From Minisyncoccia bacterium (GTDB taxonomy: Bacteria; Patescibacteriota; Minisyncoccia; SW-4-49-11): a stretch of 64,000 nt of DNA. How positions within the stretch are numbered: position 1 is the first letter of the stretch; each line of letters begins with the position of its first letter. The stretch covers positions 28,494 to 92,493 of the forward strand of contig JBIKVS010000004.1 of the NCBI GenBank assembly GCA_044356725.1, in the 5' to 3' direction. The position numbers and the translations under genes were made by a program. This document shows positions 220 through 32,205 of this stretch, piece by piece. The notes under the pieces were generated by a model, which saw only the letters and a list, made by a program, of their open reading frames with translations, was not told the DNA's origin and searched no databases.

Positions 220-407
220 AGATTTAAGTTTATAAGTTTAGCTTTATTATAGCATATAGGGTAATAATTATAAATTATGAACGGTGAGTTATGAATGCCG
301 TAGGGGCGACCTTTCAGTCGCCTGTTATTCTACCCCAAACAGTATGAGATATAACATTGACAAAAAGAGGGAAATGTGCTATGGTTCAGAAGGTTTTTTA
401 CTAAACG

Positions 408-3977: not shown

Positions 3978-4243
3978 TTTATAAATTTTATAATATGGAA
4001 GGATAAACATTTACCCCCTCCTAATATCTCTTTACAAGAGCTAATAGGAGGGACTTAAAGCTCCCTCCAACTACTTACGGCAGTTAGAAAAGAGGACAAA
4101 AATACTCCACCCCGTCTCCTCGCTATGTAAACATAACAAGAATCCACCCCTCAAGAGGGGAATTTAAAAACAAGATCATATCAAGGATATGCGACAAAAA
4201 GTCGCCCTTGCAAAATTATCAACTCACTATTCACTACTCACAA

Positions 4244-5230
4244 TTAAATCAATCTATACAAAGCTTCAGCAAGTTTAAGTGGATCATGTCGGATTAAAGT
4301 CCTTCTAAGAGAATCTTTTTTATTTGGGTTGATAAATATACCATCTGCAATTAAATCAGCTCCTATAAGGGTAGTTTTACCAAGCTTATTAGCTTTACTT
4401 GATTTGACAACAGGTTCTCCCTCCTCTTGATACTTTGCTACCAATTTTGGATCAGGTTGAGTGGTATTATATAAAGCTATATCTATAACTTCAGTCCCCA
4501 TAAACTTATTCAGTTGTCTAATATGTTCCTCTACTGACCATTGTTTATGTCCAGCTACTTTAGACATCAGATTTACATTATAAATAATTTGAGCTTGGGT
4601 TTTTTCTAAGGCTTGACTCATTCCTGGAACTATCAAATTAGGTAGTAAACTCCCGTAAAAAAGACCAGGTCCGATGACAACACTATCTGCTTCCATAATA
4701 GCTTCTTTGGCTCTGGGATTGAGTGTGGTTTTGGGAATTAACTTTAATTCTTTGACAGGATGCTGTAAATATTCTGTAGAATCGTGGATTCTAGCTTCTC
4801 CCAATAGTTCAGTTCCGTTGTCAAGAGTAATAGATAGATTAATACTATCTGTGGTGACGGGTATAACCTCTCCTTTGATGGATAAAATATCACCAGCAGT
4901 TTTGACAGCTTCTTCAAAATTACCAGTAATTTTTTCTAGAGCTGATAAAAATAAATTTCCAAAATTATGTCCAGTCAATTCTCCACAGTCAAATCTATAG
5001 TTGAATAAATGTCTTAGAATTTCAGGTGATTCAGCAAGAGCCACTAGACATTGTCTAATATCTCCTGGTGGTAAAACTCCCAATTCATCTCTTAGCTTAC
5101 CAGTAGAACCACCATTATCCACCATATTAACTATAGCTTTAAGATTTAGATTGCTAAATAATTTTAATCCAGATAAAACAGTGAAAGAGCCAGTTCCTCC
5201 ACCAATCACCACTATATTTTTATTAGACAT
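4244..5230 (-). CDS. yvcK: YvcK/CofD-like (UPF0052) gluconeogenesis-factor family protein.
   Basis: N-terminal IVVIGGGTGSFTVLSGLK and NMVDNGGSTGKLRDELGVLPPGDIRQC, as in YvcK/2-phospho-L-lactate-transferase-like proteins. The ORF-track start at 5236 is TTG; the ATG at 5230 (MSNKN) is preferred. Confidence 0.8.
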   Translation of the reverse strand: MSNKNIVVIGGGTGSFTVLSGLKLFSNLNLKAIVNMVDNGGSTGKLRDELGVLPPGDIRQCLVALAESPEILRHLFNYRFDCGELTGHNFGNLFLSALEKITGNFEEAVKTAGDILSIKGEVIPVTTDSINLSITLDNGTELLGEARIHDSTEYLQHPVKELKLIPKTTLNPRAKEAIMEADSVVIGPGLFYGSLLPNLIVPGMSQALEKTQAQIIYNVNLMSKVAGHKQWSVEEHIRQLNKFMGTEVIDIALYNTTQPDPKLVAKYQEEGEPVVKSSKANKLGKTTLIGADLIADGIFINPNKKDSLRRTLIRHDPLKLAEALYRLI

Positions 5231-5397
5231 AAACAAAATTTAATAATAATTGTGGATAACTTGGGTATAAGTCGGGGTTTCTCACAAGTTATCCACAAAA
5301 TGGAATATGATATGATTATAATAAATACATATACATATATTAAATATATATTATTCTTTAGCTGATAGCAAGATTAGATTATTGAAAAGTAAATGAA

Positions 5398-6660
5398 ATG
5401 CAGAATAAAATTAAATTATTTATATATACTAGTATAGGCATAAGTTTGCCATTTTTGATAAGGACAACCTTATTTGAATATAATATTAGAAATATTAGTT
5501 CTCCGTATGCAACTATATATTTACATAGTCTAGATATAATCTTTCTTATAGCTATATTCTTTTTTTGGTGGAAAACTAAAAATCTACCATTTAGTGATAT
5601 AAAAAATGTGGATAAGTTATGGATAACTTTATTTTCTCTTATATTTTTACACTTGTTTTGGGTAAAATATCCTCTTTTGACTTGGGTTTCTGGAATGAGA
5701 TTTTATTTAGGACTAGCCTTGATTTGGTATATAAGTAGATTTCAATATTTAGCCAGAGACCTGAAATACACTATAAACGGACTCTTTATTGGGATGTTAG
5801 CTCAAGCTATTATAGTTATAGCTCAATTTGGATTACAAAAAAATCTTGGATTACCTCTTGTGATAGAACCGGTTTTATCTAATAGTATTGCAGGTGTGGC
5901 TAAAGTTGATATTTTTAACAATACCTTTATAAGGGGTTATGGAACTTTTCCACATCCTAATATATTGGGTTATGTTGGTATATTAGCTTTAATTTTGTTA
6001 TATGCTCAAAAACTAGGCAGAAAACTATCTATAATAATTTACTCGGCTACTATTATTATTGCAGGACTTATAGATCATTATATCTTAACCTCAATACAAG
6101 CTTTTGGGATATCTATTTTGACAGCAACATATCTTTTATACGCTAGATTAGATGGATTTGGTAAGGTTTTTCGTAAATTTATAATTCTTATTCTACACCT
6201 TTTAATCTTACTTAGTTTTTCTAAAACGGCTATAGCATTGCTTTTAGCGTTAGACTTAGTATATTTGACAACATCGACTCAAAAGTCAATGTTCCACGTG
6301 GAACAATTTCAAAGAATATTAAAATCCCTGCCAAGATTATTCGTCAACGCAATGTCCGTATCGGGAATCATATTCTTATGGATTATTCCATATGCACAAA
6401 TTATAGACACCATAACCAAAAGGTTTCTATATGTACAGGATGCTTTTCAAATGATAGGTTCTAATTTATTCTTTGGAGTTGGGTTGGGGCAGTATGTTAT
6501 AAATTTATCTGATAATCGTGAATTATGGCAATATGAGCCGGTGCATAATATACTTTTATTACTATGGAGCGAGCTTGGCTTTATTGGACTTAGTCTTATA
6601 ATAGTAATTTTTTGTGTGGAATGTTACACTTATGTATATGGATACAAAAAACAAAGGTGA
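5398..6660 (+). CDS. O-antigen ligase (Wzy_C)-like polytopic membrane protein.
   Basis: Many TM helices. C-terminal motif …YEPVHNILLLLWSELGFIGLSLIIV (H..N.yL..l.E.G..G) is typical of the O-antigen ligase/Wzy_C family. The CACGTG palindrome at 6290-6305 lies inside the CDS. Confidence 0.6.
   Translation: MQNKIKLFIYTSIGISLPFLIRTTLFEYNIRNISSPYATIYLHSLDIIFLIAIFFFWWKTKNLPFSDIKNVDKLWITLFSLIFLHLFWVKYPLLTWVSGMRFYLGLALIWYISRFQYLARDLKYTINGLFIGMLAQAIIVIAQFGLQKNLGLPLVIEPVLSNSIAGVAKVDIFNNTFIRGYGTFPHPNILGYVGILALILLYAQKLGRKLSIIIYSATIIIAGLIDHYILTSIQAFGISILTATYLLYARLDGFGKVFRKFIILILHLLILLSFSKTAIALLLALDLVYLTTSTQKSMFHVEQFQRILKSLPRLFVNAMSVSGIIFLWIIPYAQIIDTITKRFLYVQDAFQMIGSNLFFGVGLGQYVINLSDNRELWQYEPVHNILLLLWSELGFIGLSLIIVIFCVECYTYVYGYKKQR
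6290..6305. repeat. 16-bp perfect palindrome TGTTCCACGTGGAACA (copy 2 of 3), inside the ligase-like CDS.
   Basis: Exact match to the core at 1001-1016 and 7027-7044. Confidence 0.9.
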
Positions 6661-7143: not shown

Positions 7144-8277
7144 ATGGACAAAATAGAAAAGATTTTTACAGAAGCTATGGCTCTTGGAGATATTAAGGTA
7201 AATGGAGATAGAGTTTGGGACTTTCAGGTTAAAAATCCAGCTATTTGGCAAAGAATGCTGAAAGATGGTTCAATGGGTGTCGGTGAGGGGTATGTAGAAG
7301 GTTGGTGGGATGTAGAGGCTTTGGATGAATTCTTATTTAGAATAAGAAAATATAAAGTTTTGGATGCTTTATCTGATGTTTTTGGGGGTTCTTGGCAAAA
7401 TCGACTATATGTTTTACAAAGTAAGGTTTTGAATTTACAAGATAAAGAAAAAAGTAAGAGAGTAGCTAAAGAGCATTATGATATAGGGAATGATTTGTAT
7501 ACTAGAATGCTTGATCCTTATATGCAATATACCTGTGCTTATTGGAAAAATGCTGATAATTTAAATCAAGCTCAAGAGAATAAATTAGATTTGATTTGCC
7601 GTAAATTAAAGTTAGAAAAAGGAATGAGAGTACTAGACATTGGTTGTGGTTGGGGCGGTTTATTGAAGTTTGCTTCAGAGAGATATGGTGTTATTGGAGT
7701 TGGGATTACTATTTCACAAGAGCAACAAAAATTAGCTCAAGATACTGTTAAGGAGCTTCCAATAGAAATTGTTTTAGCTGATTATAGAGAATATTCATCA
7801 GAGCCTTTTGATAGGGTGGTTTCAGTTGGGATGTTAGAGCATGTAGGGTATAAAAATTATAAAGAGTATATGGAGGCTGTGAATAAGAATCTAAAAGATG
7901 ATGGTTTAGCTCTTTTACATACTATTGGAGATAGTGTTTCTACTACCACTACTGAACCTTGGATAGACAAATATATATTCCCAGGAGGTCAAATACCATC
8001 TTTGCAACAATTATCTAAATCTTGGGAAAGCATATTAACTATACAAGATTTGCATAATATTGGACCAGATTATGACCTTACTCTGATGGCTTGGTATGAG
8101 AATTTCACACAATCTTGGCCAGAGTTAAAAGATAAATACGGAGAAGAGTTTTATAGACTATGGGAATATTATCTTTTGAGTTGCGCTGGTAGTTTTAGGT
8201 CTGGATATCTACAGTTGTGGCAAATGGTATTCACTAAGCAATATAATCGACTAGAAAGATACGAAGCTGAGAGATAG
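7144..8277 (+). CDS. cfa: Cyclopropane-fatty-acyl-phospholipid synthase.
   Basis: SAM-dependent methyltransferase motif VLDIGCGWGGLLKFASERYG, plus YTCAYW and VGMLEHVGYKNYKEY; length about 377 aa. Confidence 0.85.
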   Translation: MDKIEKIFTEAMALGDIKVNGDRVWDFQVKNPAIWQRMLKDGSMGVGEGYVEGWWDVEALDEFLFRIRKYKVLDALSDVFGGSWQNRLYVLQSKVLNLQDKEKSKRVAKEHYDIGNDLYTRMLDPYMQYTCAYWKNADNLNQAQENKLDLICRKLKLEKGMRVLDIGCGWGGLLKFASERYGVIGVGITISQEQQKLAQDTVKELPIEIVLADYREYSSEPFDRVVSVGMLEHVGYKNYKEYMEAVNKNLKDDGLALLHTIGDSVSTTTTEPWIDKYIFPGGQIPSLQQLSKSWESILTIQDLHNIGPDYDLTLMAWYENFTQSWPELKDKYGEEFYRLWEYYLLSCAGSFRSGYLQLWQMVFTKQYNRLERYEAER

Positions 8278-8333: not shown

Positions 8334-8346
8334 GATTTCACTATCA

Positions 8347-8431
8347 GCTAGGGTGGCGGAATGGTAGACGCAACGGACTTAAAATCCGTCGGTGATTAAA
8401 CACTGTGAGGGTTCAAGTCCCTCTCCTAGTA
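8347..8431 (+). tRNA. tRNA-Leu (anticodon TAA), class II with a long variable arm; CCA not encoded.
   Basis: Hand-folded: acceptor gctaggg/tcctagt (two G-U pairs), D-arm gcg-gaatggtaga-cgc, anticodon stem acgga/tccgt with loop cTTAAaa, long variable arm, T-arm gaggg-ttcaagt-ccctc, discriminator A. Confidence 0.8.
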
Positions 8432-8579
8432 CAAATTATAGAAACAAAAAAGCAATAGTCAGTTTTGACTATTGCTCAGGACTTGAAGGTCGGAGCGATG
8501 TGTGAGTTTGTGCGAAGCACAAGGCGAACACCGCGAGACGGGGTCGCGAGAATTTTCCGTCAGGAAAATTACTTGTGAC

Positions 8580-8602
8580 CAAGTCCCTCTCCTAGTACAA
8601 AT
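8580..8602 (+). repeat. 23-nt direct repeat of the tRNA-Leu(TAA) 3' end (caagtccctctcctagtacaaat), about 150 bp downstream of the tRNA; att-like.
   Basis: Exact duplicate of 8414-8436. The intervening 8437-8579 contains two perfect hairpins (gcaatagtc-agtttt-gactattgc and aattttcc-gtca-ggaaaatt) and a GC-rich segment. Confidence 0.85.
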
Positions 8603-8610
8603 AGAGAAGC

Positions 8611-8635
8611 AGTCCGTTTGGACTGTTTTTTAATT
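8611..8635 (+). terminator. Rho-independent terminator following the second copy of the tRNA 3' end.
   Basis: 'gcagtccgtttggactg' followed by 'tttttt'. Confidence 0.6.
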
Positions 8636-8639
8636 CCCC

Positions 8640-8966
8640 TCTTGAAGGGTGTCCCAAAGGGGCGGGGTGGATGGATTTATAAAACACAGGTGACATAAGG
8701 TCGCCCCTACGGGATGAGTGTAAAGCAAATGTCATTGCCTGCTTTAGGCAGAGATGTCTCCATTGAGCGACCGAAAATACTGTCCTCCCTTGGGGGAGGT
8801 GTCACGAAGTGACGGAGGAGGACAAAAAGCTCAAGTTTCAAAATACTTCCACCCCGTCCAGCGAAGCTGTCCACCCCCTCAATTTATCTCCATCCCTACG
8901 GGAGGTAAACCCGTAGGCAGAGAGGGGAATTTAAGGCAACTGAAAGATCGTTCTCTCCTAGTATAT
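8640..8966. repeat. Block of mosaic GC-rich intergenic repeat modules; these hairpin-forming modules are shared with at least eight other intergenic sites in the window.
   Basis: Contains modules that recur elsewhere in the window: 'aggtcgcccctacg' (family A); 'ctgtcctcccttgggggaggtgtcacgaagtgacggaggaggaca' (family C, compare 29519 and 32158); 'ccaccccgtc…gaggggaatttaa' (compare 4095-4165); and 'tctctcctagtata' (a tRNA-3'-end-like fragment). Confidence 0.7.
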
Positions 8967-8976
8967 CTTTAAAATA

Positions 8977-9066
8977 TAGACAAAAGTTTCAAAATATGGT
9001 ATGTTTCTGATTGTACGGACTCTAGAGCAATTTAGAGTCAAATTTTCTCTACCCTGAGGAGGGGTT
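8977..9066 (+). promoter_or_regulatory. Cassette promoter and 5' leader, copy 1: TAGACA, 17-bp spacer, TATGTT, then a ~55-nt leader with a conserved hairpin and a GAGGAGG ribosome-binding site.
   Basis: About 90% identical to 9657-9747. A related core (TAGACAAAAGT…AAATATG.TAT.GT) appears at 15642. Confidence 0.55.
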
Positions 9067-9516
9067 ATGTCTAACTCTCAATCGGATATAGATCCATTTG
9101 AAGAAGCACAATTTTTCATTCCCAACTCATCATACTTTAGTAGATTGTATTGTTTGGATTATATACTTACAAAACTTGATAGGGAACATAGAAGAATGGC
9201 TTTAAATATTTCTGATGACTCTAAACTTGCATTTGAAGGTGCTAATATACAACCTCCTGAGTATATTTATATTAAATTCATTGAAGAGTGGGAGTTAAGT
9301 GATAGTGATGTCCTGCACTTTGATTATCAGAGAAGAGGAGGAATTATCCCCAAATGGGGTCCTGGTGAAAAGTCGAAAGAATCACTTTTGCACATTGGGG
9401 CAATTATAAGGTTAAATCTTTTATATCAAATTAGAATGATAGGGCCAATAGATCCTAGCCCAAATGACTGTGAGTGGAGAAGAGTAGGAAAGATTGAAGT
9501 GGTAAAGCAAAGTTAA
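9067..9516 (+). CDS. Hypothetical protein, cassette ORF 1 (149 aa); no family recognised.
   Basis: ORF with a strong ribosome-binding site (gaggagg, 5 nt, ATG), enclosed by the shared promoter/leader and the shared terminator. Confidence 0.55.
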   Translation: MSNSQSDIDPFEEAQFFIPNSSYFSRLYCLDYILTKLDREHRRMALNISDDSKLAFEGANIQPPEYIYIKFIEEWELSDSDVLHFDYQRRGGIIPKWGPGEKSKESLLHIGAIIRLNLLYQIRMIGPIDPSPNDCEWRRVGKIEVVKQS

Positions 9517-9531
9517 TAAGTGTTTTCATTT

Positions 9532-9557
9532 CCCCCGCGTGCGATGCGGGGGTTTTT
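9532..9557 (+). terminator. Cassette terminator, copy 1 (cccccgcgtgcgatgcggggg + TTTTT).
   Basis: Perfect 9-bp GC stem with a T-run. It is identical to the element at 10122-10147, including the downstream 'attttcgactatttat'. Confidence 0.8.
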
Positions 9558-9656
9558 ATTTTCGACTATTTATTCACTCTCTCCACCACTTCCTAAACTT
9601 AAAGTATAGGAGGAACTTAAAGCCCTACGACAAGAATAGATTATCTCTTCGCAATA

Positions 9657-9747
9657 TTGACAAAAGTTTCAAAATATGATATGTTTCTGTTTGTCCAGGC
9701 TCTAAAGTAATTTAGAGTCAAATTTTCTCTACCCTGAGGAGGGTTTT
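9657..9747 (+). promoter_or_regulatory. Cassette promoter and 5' leader, copy 2 (TTGACA, 17-bp spacer, TATGTT, conserved leader, GAGGAGG ribosome-binding site).
   Basis: Near-identical to 8977-9066. Confidence 0.55.
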
Positions 9748-10110
9748 ATGTTGAATGTTCATTCGGCTGCATCAGCTGCAGAATTTTTTGTAGTAGATAG
9801 AATAACTGGGAAAGCTAGAATATATGACTTATCTTGTAAAGAGACTAAGGAAACAAGAATATTTTGGCTTCAAACTAGTCCTCTGAAAACAGAGTATATA
9901 GTTCTATTTTGCGATGTAACTTTAGACAATGGCAGAACAATTTCAGGTGGTGGTGAAATATCTATTATAAAAGAAGAGTTTGATAAACTCGAAATTAATG
10001 ATAATGTAGAAATAGGATTTGAGATACGTCAGAATTTCGGAGAACCTAGGAAATTATACCCACTTACATTAAAGTTTATAGATAGAGAAGGAGCTCTCGA
10101 TCTTTCTTGA
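9748..10110 (+). CDS. Hypothetical protein, cassette ORF 2 (120 aa); unrelated in sequence to ORF 1.
   Basis: Same arrangement as cassette 1 (promoter-leader, ORF, terminator), but with a different ORF. Confidence 0.55.
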   Translation: MLNVHSAASAAEFFVVDRITGKARIYDLSCKETKETRIFWLQTSPLKTEYIVLFCDVTLDNGRTISGGGEISIIKEEFDKLEINDNVEIGFEIRQNFGEPRKLYPLTLKFIDREGALDLS

Positions 10111-10121
10111 TTACCCCCCCC

Positions 10122-10147
10122 CCCCCGCGTGCGATGCGGGGGTTTTT
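10122..10147 (+). terminator. Cassette terminator, copy 2.
   Basis: Same hairpin and T-run as 9532-9557, preceded by a C-homopolymer. Confidence 0.8.
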
Positions 10148-10212
10148 ATTTTCGACTATTTATCTATAATTTGGTATAATAAATATACTTCAAATTAAGA
10201 AAATATACTGTT

Positions 10213-12768
10213 ATGCCCTCGCCGATGATGACTCAGTTTTATGAAATCAAAAAATCTTATCCGAATGATATTTTGTTTTTCCGCCTTGGGGACTTTTATG
10301 AAATGTTTGCAGAGGATGCGAAGTTAGCAGCTCCAATACTGGATTTAGTGCTAACAGCAAGAAAGAATACAGTAGATGGTAGTATTCCAATGTGTGGGGT
10401 ACCTTATCATTCATCTACTCAATATATTCAAAAACTAATCAAAGCTGGACATTCCGTAGCTTTATGCGAACAACAAGGATCAGCTCAAGATACTAAAGGT
10501 TTAGTCACTAGAAAGGTGGTAAAAGTCATTACTCCGGGGACAGCCTTATTTGAGACTGAGACAAGTGAATCAAGATATATAGCTAGTATTTATAAACAGA
10601 AAGATATTATATATATCGCTTTTGCTGACTTAGGGACTGGAATTTTTGAAGTGGGGGAATTTAGTTCTCAAGAATTAAAAGATATTTTAAGTTCAAGACA
10701 AGTCAAAGAAATTATATTGCCACAAAATAGTGATTTGAGTGAAGAATTAAAAGATTTGGGTATAAAATTAAGTATAGAGTCAAAGTGGAACTTTCAATTA
10801 GAGCGGTCTATTGAGACTTTGACTAAACATTTTGGAGTTACTAGTATGTCCGGATTCGGTTTTGAAATTGATGATTTACGGTTAGCCCCAGCAGGAGCTT
10901 TACTTAATTATCTTATTTATACTCAACAAGAGGATTTGAAGCATATTACAAAATTGCAAAGCATGAAGTTATCTCGATATATGCGATTAGATGCCCAAAC
11001 CATTCAAAATTTAGAGTTGTTTTATCTATCAAGAGCTAGTCAAAAGGGAAAAAGTTTTTATCAAGCTATTAATTATACTAGAAATCCTCTGGGATCTAGA
11101 ATGTTGAAAAACTGGATATTAGCTCCATTATTAGATATTAAGTCAATTCAAACTCGTCAGAATCATATACAAAATTATATTCAAAACCCTAGTAAAATTG
11201 ACCAAATTAGAGATTTATTAGCTCAAATTGCTGATATTGAGAGACTATTAGCTAGACTTTCTAGTAATGTCGGCGGACCTAGAGATATGTTATTATTATC
11301 CAAAAGTTTTGAATATATTATTAAAGTTTTAGAGATTGATAATGAGGATTATATAAAGTCTGCTATAAAGGCTTTGAGTCAATTAAACCCTCTACAACAA
11401 GAATTGCAAAAAGCTCTACAAGAAAATGTTCCAATATTAGCTCGGGATGGTGGATTCGTGGCCAAAGGTTATAGAGCAGAAATTGATGAGTTACTAGATT
11501 TAAGTCAAGGAGGTAAGGAGTGGCTACTAGAATTACAAACCAAAGAACAAGCGAGAACCGGGATTAATTCTCTTAAAGTTAAGTATAATAAGGTCTTTGG
11601 ATATTATATAGAAATTAGCAATGCTCATAAGAATCAGGTTTTACCAGACAATTATATCAAAAAGCAAACTTTAGCTAATGCAGAGCGATATATTACTCCT
11701 GAATTAAAAGAATTTGAGGAAAAGATATTAAGTTCAGAGTCTCAACTATTAAATTTAGAACAAATAGTTTTTGAAGAATTAAGACAAGCTATTATAGCCG
11801 AGGCGGAACAAATTTATACTATTGCTGAGACTTTAGCCTATATTGATTGTATACAAGCTGGGGCCAAATTAGCCCTAGATTGGAATTATATAAAGCCTAT
11901 AATTACTAAAAAATCTAAATTATATATAGAGGCCGGCCGACATCCAGTTTTGGAGCAGTTAATTACAGATTATATACCTAATAATTGTAAACTCACCGAA
12001 CCAAATCACTCTCTAATGTTAATTACAGGTCCTAATATGGGAGGTAAATCTACTTATATTAGGCAAGTAGCTTTGATTGTGCTTCTAGCTCAAATTGGAT
12101 ACTATGTCCCAGCTATTGAGGCTGAGATTGGAATAGTGGATAGAATTTTTACTCGAGTAGGAGCTTCGGATAATATGAGTGAGGGACAAAGTACTTTTAT
12201 GGTGGAAATGCTTGAAGTTGCAAATATTTTGCATAATGCTACCAAATCTAGTTTGGTTATTTTAGATGAAGTCGGTAGAGGCACTTCTACTTATGATGGG
12301 ATGAGTATAGCCAAGGCTTTGATTGAATATATTCATAATACAATTGGAGCTAGAACTCTATTTGCGACTCATTATCACGAATTATTAAATTTGGAAGCAG
12401 AATTAGAGGGAGTGGTGAATTATCAGGTTTTAATTCAAGACTCTGAGGATGATATTATTTTCCTACATCGTATTGAACAAGGTGGAGCTGATAAAAGCTA
12501 TGGAATTGCCATTGCTAAATTAGCAGGATTTCCAATAGATGTGCTAGAATTAGCTAAAGGAGCACTTATTCAATATGAACAAAAAAAGTCTCAATTATCT
12601 TTTTTACCAACAAATAATCTAAAATCGCCTCAAGATCCAGCAATAAACCCAAAAATTGAGAAATACAATAATTTATTACAAAATCTGCACTCTTATAATT
12701 TGAATAATTTAACTCCGATGCAGGCATTATCTATATTAGATGACTTACAAAAGAATAATCCACTATGA
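10213..12768 (+). CDS. mutS: DNA mismatch repair protein MutS.
   Basis: N-terminal mismatch-binding region MTQFYEIKKSYPNDILFFRLGDFYEMF, Walker A GPNMGGKST, and ATPase region STFMVEMLE…DEVGRGTSTYDG; 851 aa. Confidence 0.95.
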   Translation: MPSPMMTQFYEIKKSYPNDILFFRLGDFYEMFAEDAKLAAPILDLVLTARKNTVDGSIPMCGVPYHSSTQYIQKLIKAGHSVALCEQQGSAQDTKGLVTRKVVKVITPGTALFETETSESRYIASIYKQKDIIYIAFADLGTGIFEVGEFSSQELKDILSSRQVKEIILPQNSDLSEELKDLGIKLSIESKWNFQLERSIETLTKHFGVTSMSGFGFEIDDLRLAPAGALLNYLIYTQQEDLKHITKLQSMKLSRYMRLDAQTIQNLELFYLSRASQKGKSFYQAINYTRNPLGSRMLKNWILAPLLDIKSIQTRQNHIQNYIQNPSKIDQIRDLLAQIADIERLLARLSSNVGGPRDMLLLSKSFEYIIKVLEIDNEDYIKSAIKALSQLNPLQQELQKALQENVPILARDGGFVAKGYRAEIDELLDLSQGGKEWLLELQTKEQARTGINSLKVKYNKVFGYYIEISNAHKNQVLPDNYIKKQTLANAERYITPELKEFEEKILSSESQLLNLEQIVFEELRQAIIAEAEQIYTIAETLAYIDCIQAGAKLALDWNYIKPIITKKSKLYIEAGRHPVLEQLITDYIPNNCKLTEPNHSLMLITGPNMGGKSTYIRQVALIVLLAQIGYYVPAIEAEIGIVDRIFTRVGASDNMSEGQSTFMVEMLEVANILHNATKSSLVILDEVGRGTSTYDGMSIAKALIEYIHNTIGARTLFATHYHELLNLEAELEGVVNYQVLIQDSEDDIIFLHRIEQGGADKSYGIAIAKLAGFPIDVLELAKGALIQYEQKKSQLSFLPTNNLKSPQDPAINPKIEKYNNLLQNLHSYNLNNLTPMQALSILDDLQKNNPL

Positions 12769-15486: not shown

Positions 15487-15641
15487 TTAGTGAATTGAAT
15501 TAAAATTCCCCTCTCTTCCTACGGTTTACCTACCGCAGGCAGGGAGATAAATTGAGGGGTGCCCATAGGGCAAGGTGGAAAAACCAGGCGACTGAAAGGT
15601 CGCCCCTACGAGAACTATGAACTAAAATGAGGAATATATTA

Positions 15642-15697
15642 TAGACAAAAGTGGGGAAATATGCTATTGTCTAGGAGTTCCCTCAAACCATCAGGCT
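15642..15697 (+). promoter_or_regulatory. Third copy of the cassette-type promoter core (TAGACA, 17-bp spacer, TATTGT), driving a GC-rich small ORF.
   Basis: 'atagacaaaagtggggaaatatgctattgt' parallels 'atagacaaaagtttcaaaatatggtatgtt' at 8975. Confidence 0.4.
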
Positions 15698-15988
15698 ATG
15701 ACCATGTCACAAACTGATAAAGATAGAGCTTTGCAAGAGGCAAGAGGTGCCTACCAGGATTCTGACGGAGCTCTCGTGGCTCTTGCTGCTGCTGCCAAAG
15801 AGTATCAGGACATTTTTGCCCTTACCAGGCACCCCAACTTTAAGGATAGTGTCATGACAGGAGAGGTTTTCGCTGATCTGACCCAGGCTAGGCGAAAAAT
15901 GAAGGAGGCTTTTGATGAAGTCTCTCGCACAGAAACAGCTCTTTTTAAGCAAGTTGCTAGTCTTCTTGCACCGGCATCGGGTGATTGA
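15698..15988 (+). CDS. Hypothetical 96-aa Ala/Glu-rich protein; its GC-rich composition looks foreign to this genome.
   Basis: ORF with visibly higher GC than its surroundings, so antisense ORFs also stay open across it. It is followed by a C-rich hairpin plus T8 terminator at 16005-16048. Confidence 0.4.
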   Translation: MTMSQTDKDRALQEARGAYQDSDGALVALAAAAKEYQDIFALTRHPNFKDSVMTGEVFADLTQARRKMKEAFDEVSRTETALFKQVASLLAPASGD

Positions 15989-32005: not shown

Positions 32006-32157
32006 TATGGGTAATATAACTTTATAATGCACTCTATCAAATATATCACAATTTTAAATTTTTGTCTATTGTTTGTACTAGATGAGATGATCGTAGACAA
32101 ATTGCAAAATAAAAAGTTAAAGAATGGAAGGAACATATAAAGTATTATATAATTCAC

Positions 32158-32205
32158 TGTCCTCCTTTGGAGGAGGTGGCACGAAGTGCCGGTGGTGGAT
32201 TGAGT
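32158..32205. repeat. Family C repeat module. Family D ('gggtactccctccaaagggagaca', 32385-32404) follows in the same intergenic region.
   Basis: Matches 29519-29585 (C) and 57075-57116 / 59156-59197 (D). Confidence 0.8.

Follow-up and report, generated by a model that had tools for sequence, protein, structure and literature searches.

Why should two neighbouring small genes that do not resemble each other stand behind nearly the same promoter and leader and ahead of exactly the same terminator? The question arises in a 64,000-nt stretch of contig JBIKVS010000004.1 from a tiny, uncultured Minisyncoccia bacterium of fresh water (hereafter the window), where two such cassettes lie in tandem in the gap between a tRNA-Leu gene and mutS. 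We consider it probable that this gap houses an array of autonomous expression cassettes that varies between strains, and that the cassettes are shuffled by homologous recombination acting on their conserved regulatory ends. The parts of the two cassettes, each built around one open reading frame (ORF), are listed below; L numbers, here and later, designate loci with which the window was compared.

8962-9066 and 9642-9746 (+): upstream block, copies 1 and 2, 88% identical over 105 nt and 91% over a core of 91 nt
8977-9005 (+): predicted promoter of cassette 1, TAGACA-17-TATGTT, with an extended -10 TG
9012-9066 (+): predicted 5'-untranslated region (5'-UTR) of cassette 1, with a 9-bp hairpin and GNRA-like loop at 9018-9039; fold -17.6 kcal/mol
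9056-9062 and 9736-9742 (+): ribosome-binding sites GAGGAGG, 4-5 nt ahead of ATG
9067-9516 (+): ORF1, 149 amino acids (aa), cargo family 1; predicted soluble acidic orphan protein
9532-9573 (+): predicted intrinsic terminator of cassette 1 (stem-loop 9532-9552, T run) and 16-nt tail; left copy of a 42-nt direct repeat
9574-9641 (+): inter-cassette spacer, resembling the sequence ahead of the leaders of L011, L016 and L035
9657-9685 (+): predicted promoter of cassette 2, TTGACA-17-TATGTT, with an extended -10 TG
9692-9747 (+): predicted 5'-UTR of cassette 2, with the hairpin at 9698-9719 and a second small hairpin that includes the Shine-Dalgarno sequence; z -2.4
9748-10110 (+): ORF2, 120 aa, cargo family 2; soluble acidic all-beta protein, predicted OB-like small barrel
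10114-10163 (+): 13-C tract, predicted terminator of cassette 2 (stem-loop 10122-10142, T run) and tail; right copy of the 42-nt repeat at 10122-10163
10152-10180 (+): predicted mutS promoter, TCGACT-17-TATAAT, extended -10; its -35 part lies inside the 42-nt repeat

A preliminary description of this DNA had put the identity of the upstream parts at about 90%, in keeping with the values above, and the promoter, leader hairpin and GAGGAGG that it read in both copies were located again, as predictions. The only differences between the two hairpins preserve pairing (A-U to G-U, and G-U to A-U). Downstream, the repeat is identical at 42 of 42 positions and consists of a GC-rich 9-bp stem, a T run and then TTTTCGACTATTTAT. 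The terminator described as common to both units thus stands, with the correction that the 3' half of the repeat (TCGACT...) is the -35 region of the mutS promoter. Each cassette motif occurs in exactly two copies in the window, where shuffled sequence gives an expectation of zero. The two ORFs are as dissimilar as was first stated, with BLASTP giving E=0.068 over 32 residues and hhalign of the family profiles a probability of 0.2%.

The tandem is not an assembly artefact, because it was assembled identically in at least five independent samples (L001-L005) by different pipelines, and partial overlaps from two more samples (L006 and L007) are consistent with it. A candidate different first cargo in L006 was rejected, as it proved to be ORF1 cut off at the contig end.

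Cargo replacement and gain or loss of units between tRNA-Leu and mutS

Across about 15 related lineages, the gap between tRNA-Leu and mutS holds zero to three units of common design, with leaders and terminators at the same locus in L009-L019, L030-L035 and L037-L039. The contents were as follows.

L020: empty gap, with the mutS promoter directly after the tRNA terminator
L008-L012, L031 and L039: one ORF1-type unit
L013/L014: one ORF2 unit and a reverse-oriented 119-122-aa gene
L015/L032: a 104-aa cargo and the same reverse gene as in L013/L014
L016: an acidic 145-147-aa cargo
L018/L019: a cargo of ~100 aa, disrupted in both
L030: two full units (a 107-110-aa cargo; an ORF2 relative, 41% identical), a truncated promoter and an opposite-strand membrane ORF
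L034: a 103-aa member of the ~100-aa family, then the ORF2-family member P0013
L035: P0013, then a 96-aa cargo
Contig bF2VLPBy (short, from the window's own sample): an ORF1-type gene, then a 103-aa gene, then mutS

By phmmer and hhalign, the 96-aa cargo is tied to the ORF2 family, and the L030 and L015 cargos are tied to it weakly; ORF1, the acidic L016 protein and the ~100-aa family are unrelated to ORF2 and to each other. At least four or five families that appear unrelated by these comparisons are thus carried within one scaffold. The arrays of L030 and those of L034, L035 and contig bF2VLPBy have independent origins.

Pairwise alignment of the window with its relatives placed the changes at the level of slots and units. 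Over a stretch that begins at the tRNA, includes the leader and extends about 8 nt beyond the start codon, the window (8340-9074) and L035 (3274-4008) are 96.6% identical; similarity is lost in slot 1, where ORF1 stands against P0013, and regained at the terminator and spacer, while slot 2 holds ORF2 in one and the 96-aa protein in the other. The N-terminal regions of the two MutS proteins are 99% identical. The window and L009 are collinear apart from a 590-nt block made up of spacer, leader, ORF2 and terminator. The 42-nt direct repeat marks both ends of this block, and its two window copies both align to the sole copy in L009.

The comparison with L013 bears on exchange between genomes. ORF2 is 99.5% identical in the two: over about 360 nt, the copies are set apart by a single substitution and a 3-nt indel. 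Identity is 84-86% for the surrounding Wzy, CMAS, mutS and mutL genes and about 85% for the promoter half of the leader, and the terminator differs at 4 positions. Because the flanks diverge and ORF2 is near-identical, the exchanged tract ends inside the leader and at the poly-C tract or terminator. As judged from these alignments, the tract shows recent horizontal exchange of ORF2. Synonymous divergence (dS) was lower in ORF1 than in mutS, at 0.66 versus 3.4 for the window and L011 and 0.24 versus 0.47 for the window and L009, and ORF1 proteins are 75-80% identical whether MutS identity is 70% or 96%. Divergence of the cargo is thus uncoupled from that of the genome. The leaders are mosaics, with variants that sort partly by genome lineage and partly by cargo. 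In L033/L038 a cassette is fused to the tRNA-terminator region at a common TTTTGACTATT; this fusion and a duplicated mutS segment in L013/L015 point the same way, in agreement with exchange through conserved ends.

The duplicated mutS segment belongs to a separate insert of about 520 nt (L013 6395-7025; also L014, L015 5380-6003, and L032). It carries the reverse 119-122-aa orphan gene together with a separate promoter and hairpin terminator for this gene, and the flanks of the insert are a direct duplication of about 95 nt comprising the mutS promoter and the first 13-16 mutS codons. In L030, an opposite-strand ORF of 127 aa with hydrophobic segments (12074-12457, +) follows a cassette promoter truncated past its -10 (12562-12520), in a region that looks like a cassette broken by another insertion. 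The same locus has a promoter with a structured non-coding unit of about 150 nt and a terminator, duplicated before both full cassettes (~13470-13290 and ~12000-11780).

The cargo proteins have few relatives. Only about 7 clusters of ORF1, at 75-80% identity, were found among 5.8 billion proteins, all of them at this locus wherever the context was checked, and a profile search added none. An exhaustive HMMER search of 1.84 billion representatives gave 5 real clusters of the ORF2 family; one further hit, P0014, was rejected as a spurious repetitive protein. Searches of ORF1, ORF2 and 5-7 further cargos against Pfam, PHROGs, PADLOC and NCBIfam returned nothing significant. Homology to immunity proteins was sought for 7-9 cargos without a match in Pfam, NCBIfam or PADLOC, with remote structural similarity checked for ORF2 only. 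Of the structure predictions that had been suggested for both proteins, one gave a usable model. The AlphaFold2 (AF2) model of ORF1 was unusable, with a predicted local distance difference test (pLDDT) score of 38.7, and its profile matched no PDB sequence. ORF2 gave a confident all-beta model and is predicted to be a generic OB-like small beta-barrel; Foldseek against the viral structures of BFVD returned generic OB-fold matches only (E >= 1e-3, TM < 0.5). All cargos are predicted to be soluble, with no signal peptide and no transmembrane segment.

Ratios of nonsynonymous to synonymous divergence (dN/dS), calculated with the NG86 method, which is rough on short divergent genes, were 0.23-0.87 for ORF1, 0.74-0.98 for the ORF2 family and 0.05-0.18 for mutS. 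Three cargo genes are disrupted: in L018 by a frameshift from a 32-nt tandem duplication (5608-5671), in L019 by an in-frame stop at codon 6 (~5588-5605) and in L031 by a TAA at codon 22 of an ORF1-type gene (~319). The cargo genes are dispensable and fast-evolving, which would fit a role in genetic conflict. Together, the comparisons demonstrate that the locus is modular, that cargo is replaced slot by slot, that units are gained and lost, and that cargo evolves fast and is occasionally pseudogenised. They bear out one proposal of the preliminary description, that of recombination-shuffled modular cassettes, through cargo that differs between near-identical strains, arrays that range from zero to three units, and the ORF2 tract of 99.5% identity in a background of ~85%. 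The possibility it had raised that ORF1 and ORF2 are syntenic core genes does not hold.

The ends of the units were conserved to a different degree from the genes around them. The cassette promoter is kept in 17 leaders from relatives. In the leader hairpin, 99.1% of cells pair across 12 distinct leaders, one pair occurs as GC, GU or AU, and a shift of the partner by a single column makes the pairing collapse. Because G-U pairs are frequent, these patterns speak for a hairpin that acts at the RNA level rather than as a DNA operator. Transcription is predicted to start about 6 nt ahead of the hairpin, which may serve as a 5' element that stabilises the mRNA or tunes translation. Rfam searches of the leader, at gathering and at permissive thresholds, matched no riboswitch, leader or thermometer family. 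Pairing in the terminator stem is kept through a compensatory change (C-G to U-A in L013), and the loop is invariant. Between the window and L011, identity is 97% in the terminator and 82-85% in the leader, compared with 70-75% for mutS and 64% for Wzy; cassette flanks are thus conserved above coding genes in distant lineages. The C homopolymer that directly precedes the terminator stem ranges in length from 5 to 13 C among cassettes and strains (window 10114-10126; L011, L013, L030, L034, L035), and slippage of this tract is possible.

Proposed exchange through regulatory ends and its alternatives

We propose that each unit would consist of an extended -10, sigma-70-type promoter, a 5'-UTR of about 55 nt with a 5'-proximal 9-bp hairpin, GAGGAGG, a small soluble orphan ORF and a terminator. 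The GC-rich intrinsic terminator would insulate the next unit and mutS. Besides serving as signals for expression, the conserved ends would supply portable homology (left, about 100 nt; right, about 42 nt), such that homologous recombination on them could swap cargo and add or delete units, with DNA taken up from relatives or with unequal crossing-over as the route. The tandem in the window would then be one state of the array, with ORF1 in slot 1 and the 590-nt ORF2 unit in slot 2. We infer the transcription start and stop sites of the cassettes, and RecA-type recombination as the mechanism. As a guess, the cargo may be dispensable, fast-evolving factors in genetic conflict, acting in defence, anti-defence, immunity or host interaction.

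Several points weigh against this proposal. The promoter, transcription start, terminator and translation are predictions from sequence, and recombination is read from its end products, with no intermediates seen. The diversity of ORF2, the 96-aa cargo and possibly the L030 and L015 cargos could reflect divergence of paralogues instead of import. The dN/dS contrast carries the roughness of its method, and database family searches yield no function for any cargo. The part of the genome that was scanned amounts to about 64 kb, and further copies may exist elsewhere; in a metagenome collection, the leader DNA pattern was found at only 3 loci. The preliminary description had noted that its argument would fail if the shared ends were a generic consensus of this organism. 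This applies to the promoter core, since TAGACAAAAG...AAATATGnTAT recurs at ~330-390, 15640-15671 and 52012-51980; it does not apply to the 5'-UTR and terminator, which within the window belong to the cassettes only.

Shared ends around dissimilar genes might also have arisen by tandem duplication in situ followed by very fast coding divergence, with the regulatory ends held by selection and no exchange between genomes. We regard this as unlikely, although part of the evidence leans its way: the L035 96-aa cargo is distantly related to the ORF2 family (hhalign 88.6%; phmmer 2e-6 within a small set), the L030 and L015 cargos give borderline scores, dN is close to dS within the ORF2 family, and leader variants partly track genome lineage and not cargo type. 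Duplication in place does not account for the lack of similarity of ORF1, the acidic L016 protein and the ~100-aa family to ORF2 or to one another, nor for an ORF2 that is 99.5% identical between genomes about 85% identical elsewhere. ORF1 dS far under that of mutS, and the patchy occurrence of the ORF1 type on the MutS tree, also argue against it. A site-specific route is conceivable as well, in which units would be captured as in an integron by a recombinase encoded elsewhere, with the GC-rich hairpin or its TTTTCGACTATT tail as an attC- or attI-like core. The near-invariance of the terminator hairpin across lineages, loop included, and the short direct repeats that bound units would suit such a core. 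So would a second insertion position in L033/L038, where the unit ends TTTT(C/T)GACTATT and is joined to the corresponding TTTTGACTATT in the region of the tRNA terminator, and the L013/L015 insert between duplicated mutS 5' segments of about 95 nt. Internal units of L030 and L034 have another tail (TTTTTAYGCAAAT), however, so that there is no universal core site, and breakpoints fall at variable places within long homologies. Every unit has its own promoter, unlike integron cassettes. Moreover, no integrase, recombinase or phage gene was found among the genes called within about 9 kb at any locus, or among the array neighbours and ten 240-420-aa ORFs of the window, the rest of the window's ORFs being unscanned. 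We therefore judge integron-like capture to be quite improbable.

Two further explanations take the ORFs themselves as their starting point. The preliminary description had likened the cassettes to phage morons, and a decayed prophage or integrative element at a tRNA-Leu att site could have left true morons behind. A 23-nt repeat of the tRNA 3' end does bracket a 166-nt insert, and the layout of promoter, ORF and terminator is that of a moron. In the strict sense, this identification is not supported: the cassettes lie in a CPR (candidate phyla radiation) chromosome with no phage or integrase genes found nearby, the cassette proteins matched no PHROG, neither the leader nor either protein family had a match in IMG/VR, and the viral structure search gave only the generic OB-fold hits described above. 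In GC content the cassettes match the genome, and cassettes are present in lineages that do not have the tRNA repeat, making a prophage remnant very unlikely. In the scan of viral sequences, a match to the terminator core (L036) was rejected as a chance occurrence in a GC-rich coding region. Least credible of all is a functional pair, such as a toxin with its antitoxin or immunity protein, as might be suspected of two small adjacent genes in a variable region. The separate occurrence of the ORFs argues strongly against an obligate pair, with ORF1 alone in L008-L012 and L039 and ORF2 without ORF1 in L013/L014. In contig bF2VLPBy a 103-aa gene takes the second place beside ORF1, each ORF has a separate predicted promoter and terminator, and no toxin-antitoxin or PADLOC family was matched.

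Shuffling of autonomous cassettes by homologous recombination is the reading that we retain. A bolder version of it, which we put forward only tentatively and consider rather doubtful, is that CPR bacteria possess an undescribed, integrase-independent "plug-and-play" exchange device. Its dock would run from tRNA-Leu to mutS, the promoter-leader and terminator would serve as recombination handles, and a communal pool of fast-evolving small proteins, perhaps anti-phage, immunity or host-interaction factors, would be shared, stacked and dropped within a population in the absence of dedicated mobile-element machinery. Patescibacteria have tiny genomes with few recognisable mobile elements, and their strain-level variation is mostly unexplained. 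At this locus, variation in gene content is visible at a resolution of about 0.6 kb, and the unit's regulatory DNA appears to provide the homology for exchange, which would amount to a simple, integrase-free route for horizontal gene exchange in reduced genomes. The unit is also a natural scaffold of promoter, 5'-UTR, ribosome-binding site and terminator, validated by evolution, that could aid genetic tools for an uncultivated phylum. Its few fast-evolving orphan proteins, one with a confident all-beta model, are candidates for roles in conflict or host interaction in episymbiotic bacteria.

Landmarks, spacer and promoter modules around the array

The array is embedded in core chromosome, in the gene order BipA, CofD, Wzy-like, UPF0102, CMAS-type methyltransferase, tRNA-Leu(UAA), array, MutS, MutL and DnaJ. 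The features on either side of the cassettes are given below.

8347-8432 (+): tRNA-Leu(UAA), left landmark (ARAGORN, Rfam)
8433-8602 (+): insert of 166-170 nt between tRNA 3'-end repeats, including a bidirectional hairpin terminator
8603-8961 (+): GC-rich (~47%) spacer, non-coding by composition, with small palindromic repeat modules
10213-12768 (+): mutS, conserved right landmark

The tRNA-Leu gene lies upstream of mutS in all checkable relatives (L009, L011, L013, L015-L020, L034 and L035). It was first described as directly beside the array, from which it is in fact separated by about 530 nt. Relatives of MutS (77-89% identity over the first 400 residues) belong to Patescibacteria, in metagenome-assembled genomes (MAGs) labelled Paceibacterota, Parcubacteria or Minisyncoccia; the MAG with the closest MutS match is labelled Saccharibacteria.

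A perfect 23-nt direct repeat of the tRNA-Leu 3' end (8414-8436 and 8580-8602) flanks the insert, which may be the footprint of an old integration or of a Campbell-type duplication. When considered as a tRNA island, the repeat encloses 166 nt only, upstream of the cassettes, and no integrase was found nearby. The duplicated tRNA end and the second half of the insert are absent from L011, L016, L018, L019 and L020, where no more than about 40% of the insert remains; lineages without the repeat still have cassettes, for which it is dispensable.

Short palindromic modules of high GC content (45-60%), resembling repetitive extragenic palindromic (REP) elements or miniature inverted-repeat transposable elements (MITEs), occur between genes in this 33% GC genome, and the sequence from tRNA-Leu to the first cassette (8433-8961) is a mosaic of them. 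The last 40-50 nt or so of the spacer (8910-8961) also adjoin the cassette promoter in relatives. Fragments of the spacer recur in the window at 1220-1268, 4145-4172, 15503-15559 and 32156-32188, and ahead of leaders in L009, L010, L013/L014 and L034 (both leaders), while a repeat related to its modules lies upstream of two promoters in L030. In Rfam, the GC-rich spacer region matched no family other than tRNA, and a hidden Markov model of the leader, used to look for decayed cassettes at 8433-8975, detected no old leaders. The left side of the tRNA is also variable, because the CMAS-type methyltransferase gene (window 7144-8277, between UPF0102 and tRNA-Leu) is absent from several relatives (L008/sFyaGk8N, L011, L015, L016 and L018). 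In L013, the interval from CMAS to tRNA-Leu, 70 nt long in the window, contains about 550 nt of additional GC-rich sequence (4708-5323). This sequence was predicted as an ORF of 124 aa, which had no matches, and is probably non-coding repeat material.

The promoter core shared with the cassettes is often preceded by a GC-rich hairpin module. At 300-390 (+), 15588-15671 (+) and 52065-51980 (-), such modules consist of the GC-rich hairpin (GGCGAC-TGAAAG/CTTTCA-GTCGCC, CCCTACG) and then T(A/T)GACAAAAG...AAAT(A/G)TGnTAT. Behind them are small ORFs without Pfam matches at 408-926, 15698-15988 and 51956-51738, the last encoding a 72-aa membrane protein. Because the core recurs at three further loci before small unannotated ORFs, the promoter type is read as a genome-wide class, and the module may represent a clade-specific strong-promoter or regulon class. 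The ORF at 408-926, directly behind its module, encodes 172 aa rich in Ala, Thr and Pro; it is unannotated, has 61% GC in a genome of 33% GC and contains an internal tandem repeat of about 240 nt.

Comparison with known systems

Phage morons are units of promoter, ORF and terminator placed between phage genes, a concept of Hendrix and Juhala. The cassettes resemble them as predicted autonomous units, in each of which a promoter and a terminator enclose a single small accessory ORF, that lie between conserved genes and are present or absent among close relatives. They differ in residing in a bacterial CPR chromosome, with neither phage context nor viral homologues found. To our knowledge, morons share no common promoter, leader or terminator, whereas in the cassettes the regulatory ends are the conserved and reusable part. 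The vlp and vsp surface-protein families of Mycoplasma, which have highly conserved 5' non-coding regions, offer another parallel: tandem genes in a minimal genome, with a near-identical promoter and 5' leader before divergent coding regions. In those families the signal peptide is conserved too, the products are lipoproteins, and the promoters are phase-variable. In the cassettes, by contrast, conservation ends at the ATG, the cargo is predicted to lack both signal peptides and transmembrane segments, and a switch element is not apparent.

Like integron arrays (PMC3856429), the locus presents tandem single-gene units, a 3' hairpin repeat, unrelated and mostly unknown cargo, and strain-specific content. 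Neither intI nor attI nor Pc was found at the cassettes (genes within about 9 kb), and integron cassettes are promoterless, while each unit here has its own promoter. Compared with attC, the 3' element of the cassettes, a 9-bp GC stem and a T run, looks like an intrinsic terminator, as judged by form alone, and the cassette junctions suggest homologous rather than site-specific recombination. Recombinase-associated acquired interbacterial defence (rAID-1) arrays are orphan immunity gene arrays of Bacteroidales (Ross et al., bioRxiv 10.1101/471110; PMC12247911). They are defined by a 5' XerD-like recombinase with >44% identity to Bacteroides fragilis BF9343_RS08045, followed by at least 2 co-directional low-GC genes (10.1101/471110). 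Co-directional, small, fast-evolving and mostly orphan genes, repetitive intergenic sequence and strain-variable content are common to both. The cassettes, however, had no XerD-like recombinase among the genes scanned, number 1-3 genes compared with up to 31, show no GC skew relative to the genome, and carry cargo without a match to known immunity families.

No account of such arrays in Patescibacteria was found in the searchable literature. Replacement and additive flexible genomic islands stand beside tRNA genes in the Alteromonas pangenome (PMC4898812), and P2 and P4 defence hotspots have conserved flanks (PMC9122126). As in these, the array occupies a fixed position between conserved landmarks, one of them a tRNA, and alternative cargo is swapped by recombination in conserved flanks. 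The cassettes differ in measuring about 0.6 kb per unit and holding single orphan ORFs, compared with multi-gene systems, and exchange appears to rely on homology in the promoter-leader and terminator of each unit, not in flanking core genes. Among general concepts, flexible islands of the replacement or additive type at tRNA-linked hotspots come closest (PMC4898812, PMC9122126), and the array is set apart from them by its miniature scale and by the apparent use of its own regulatory ends as the homology.

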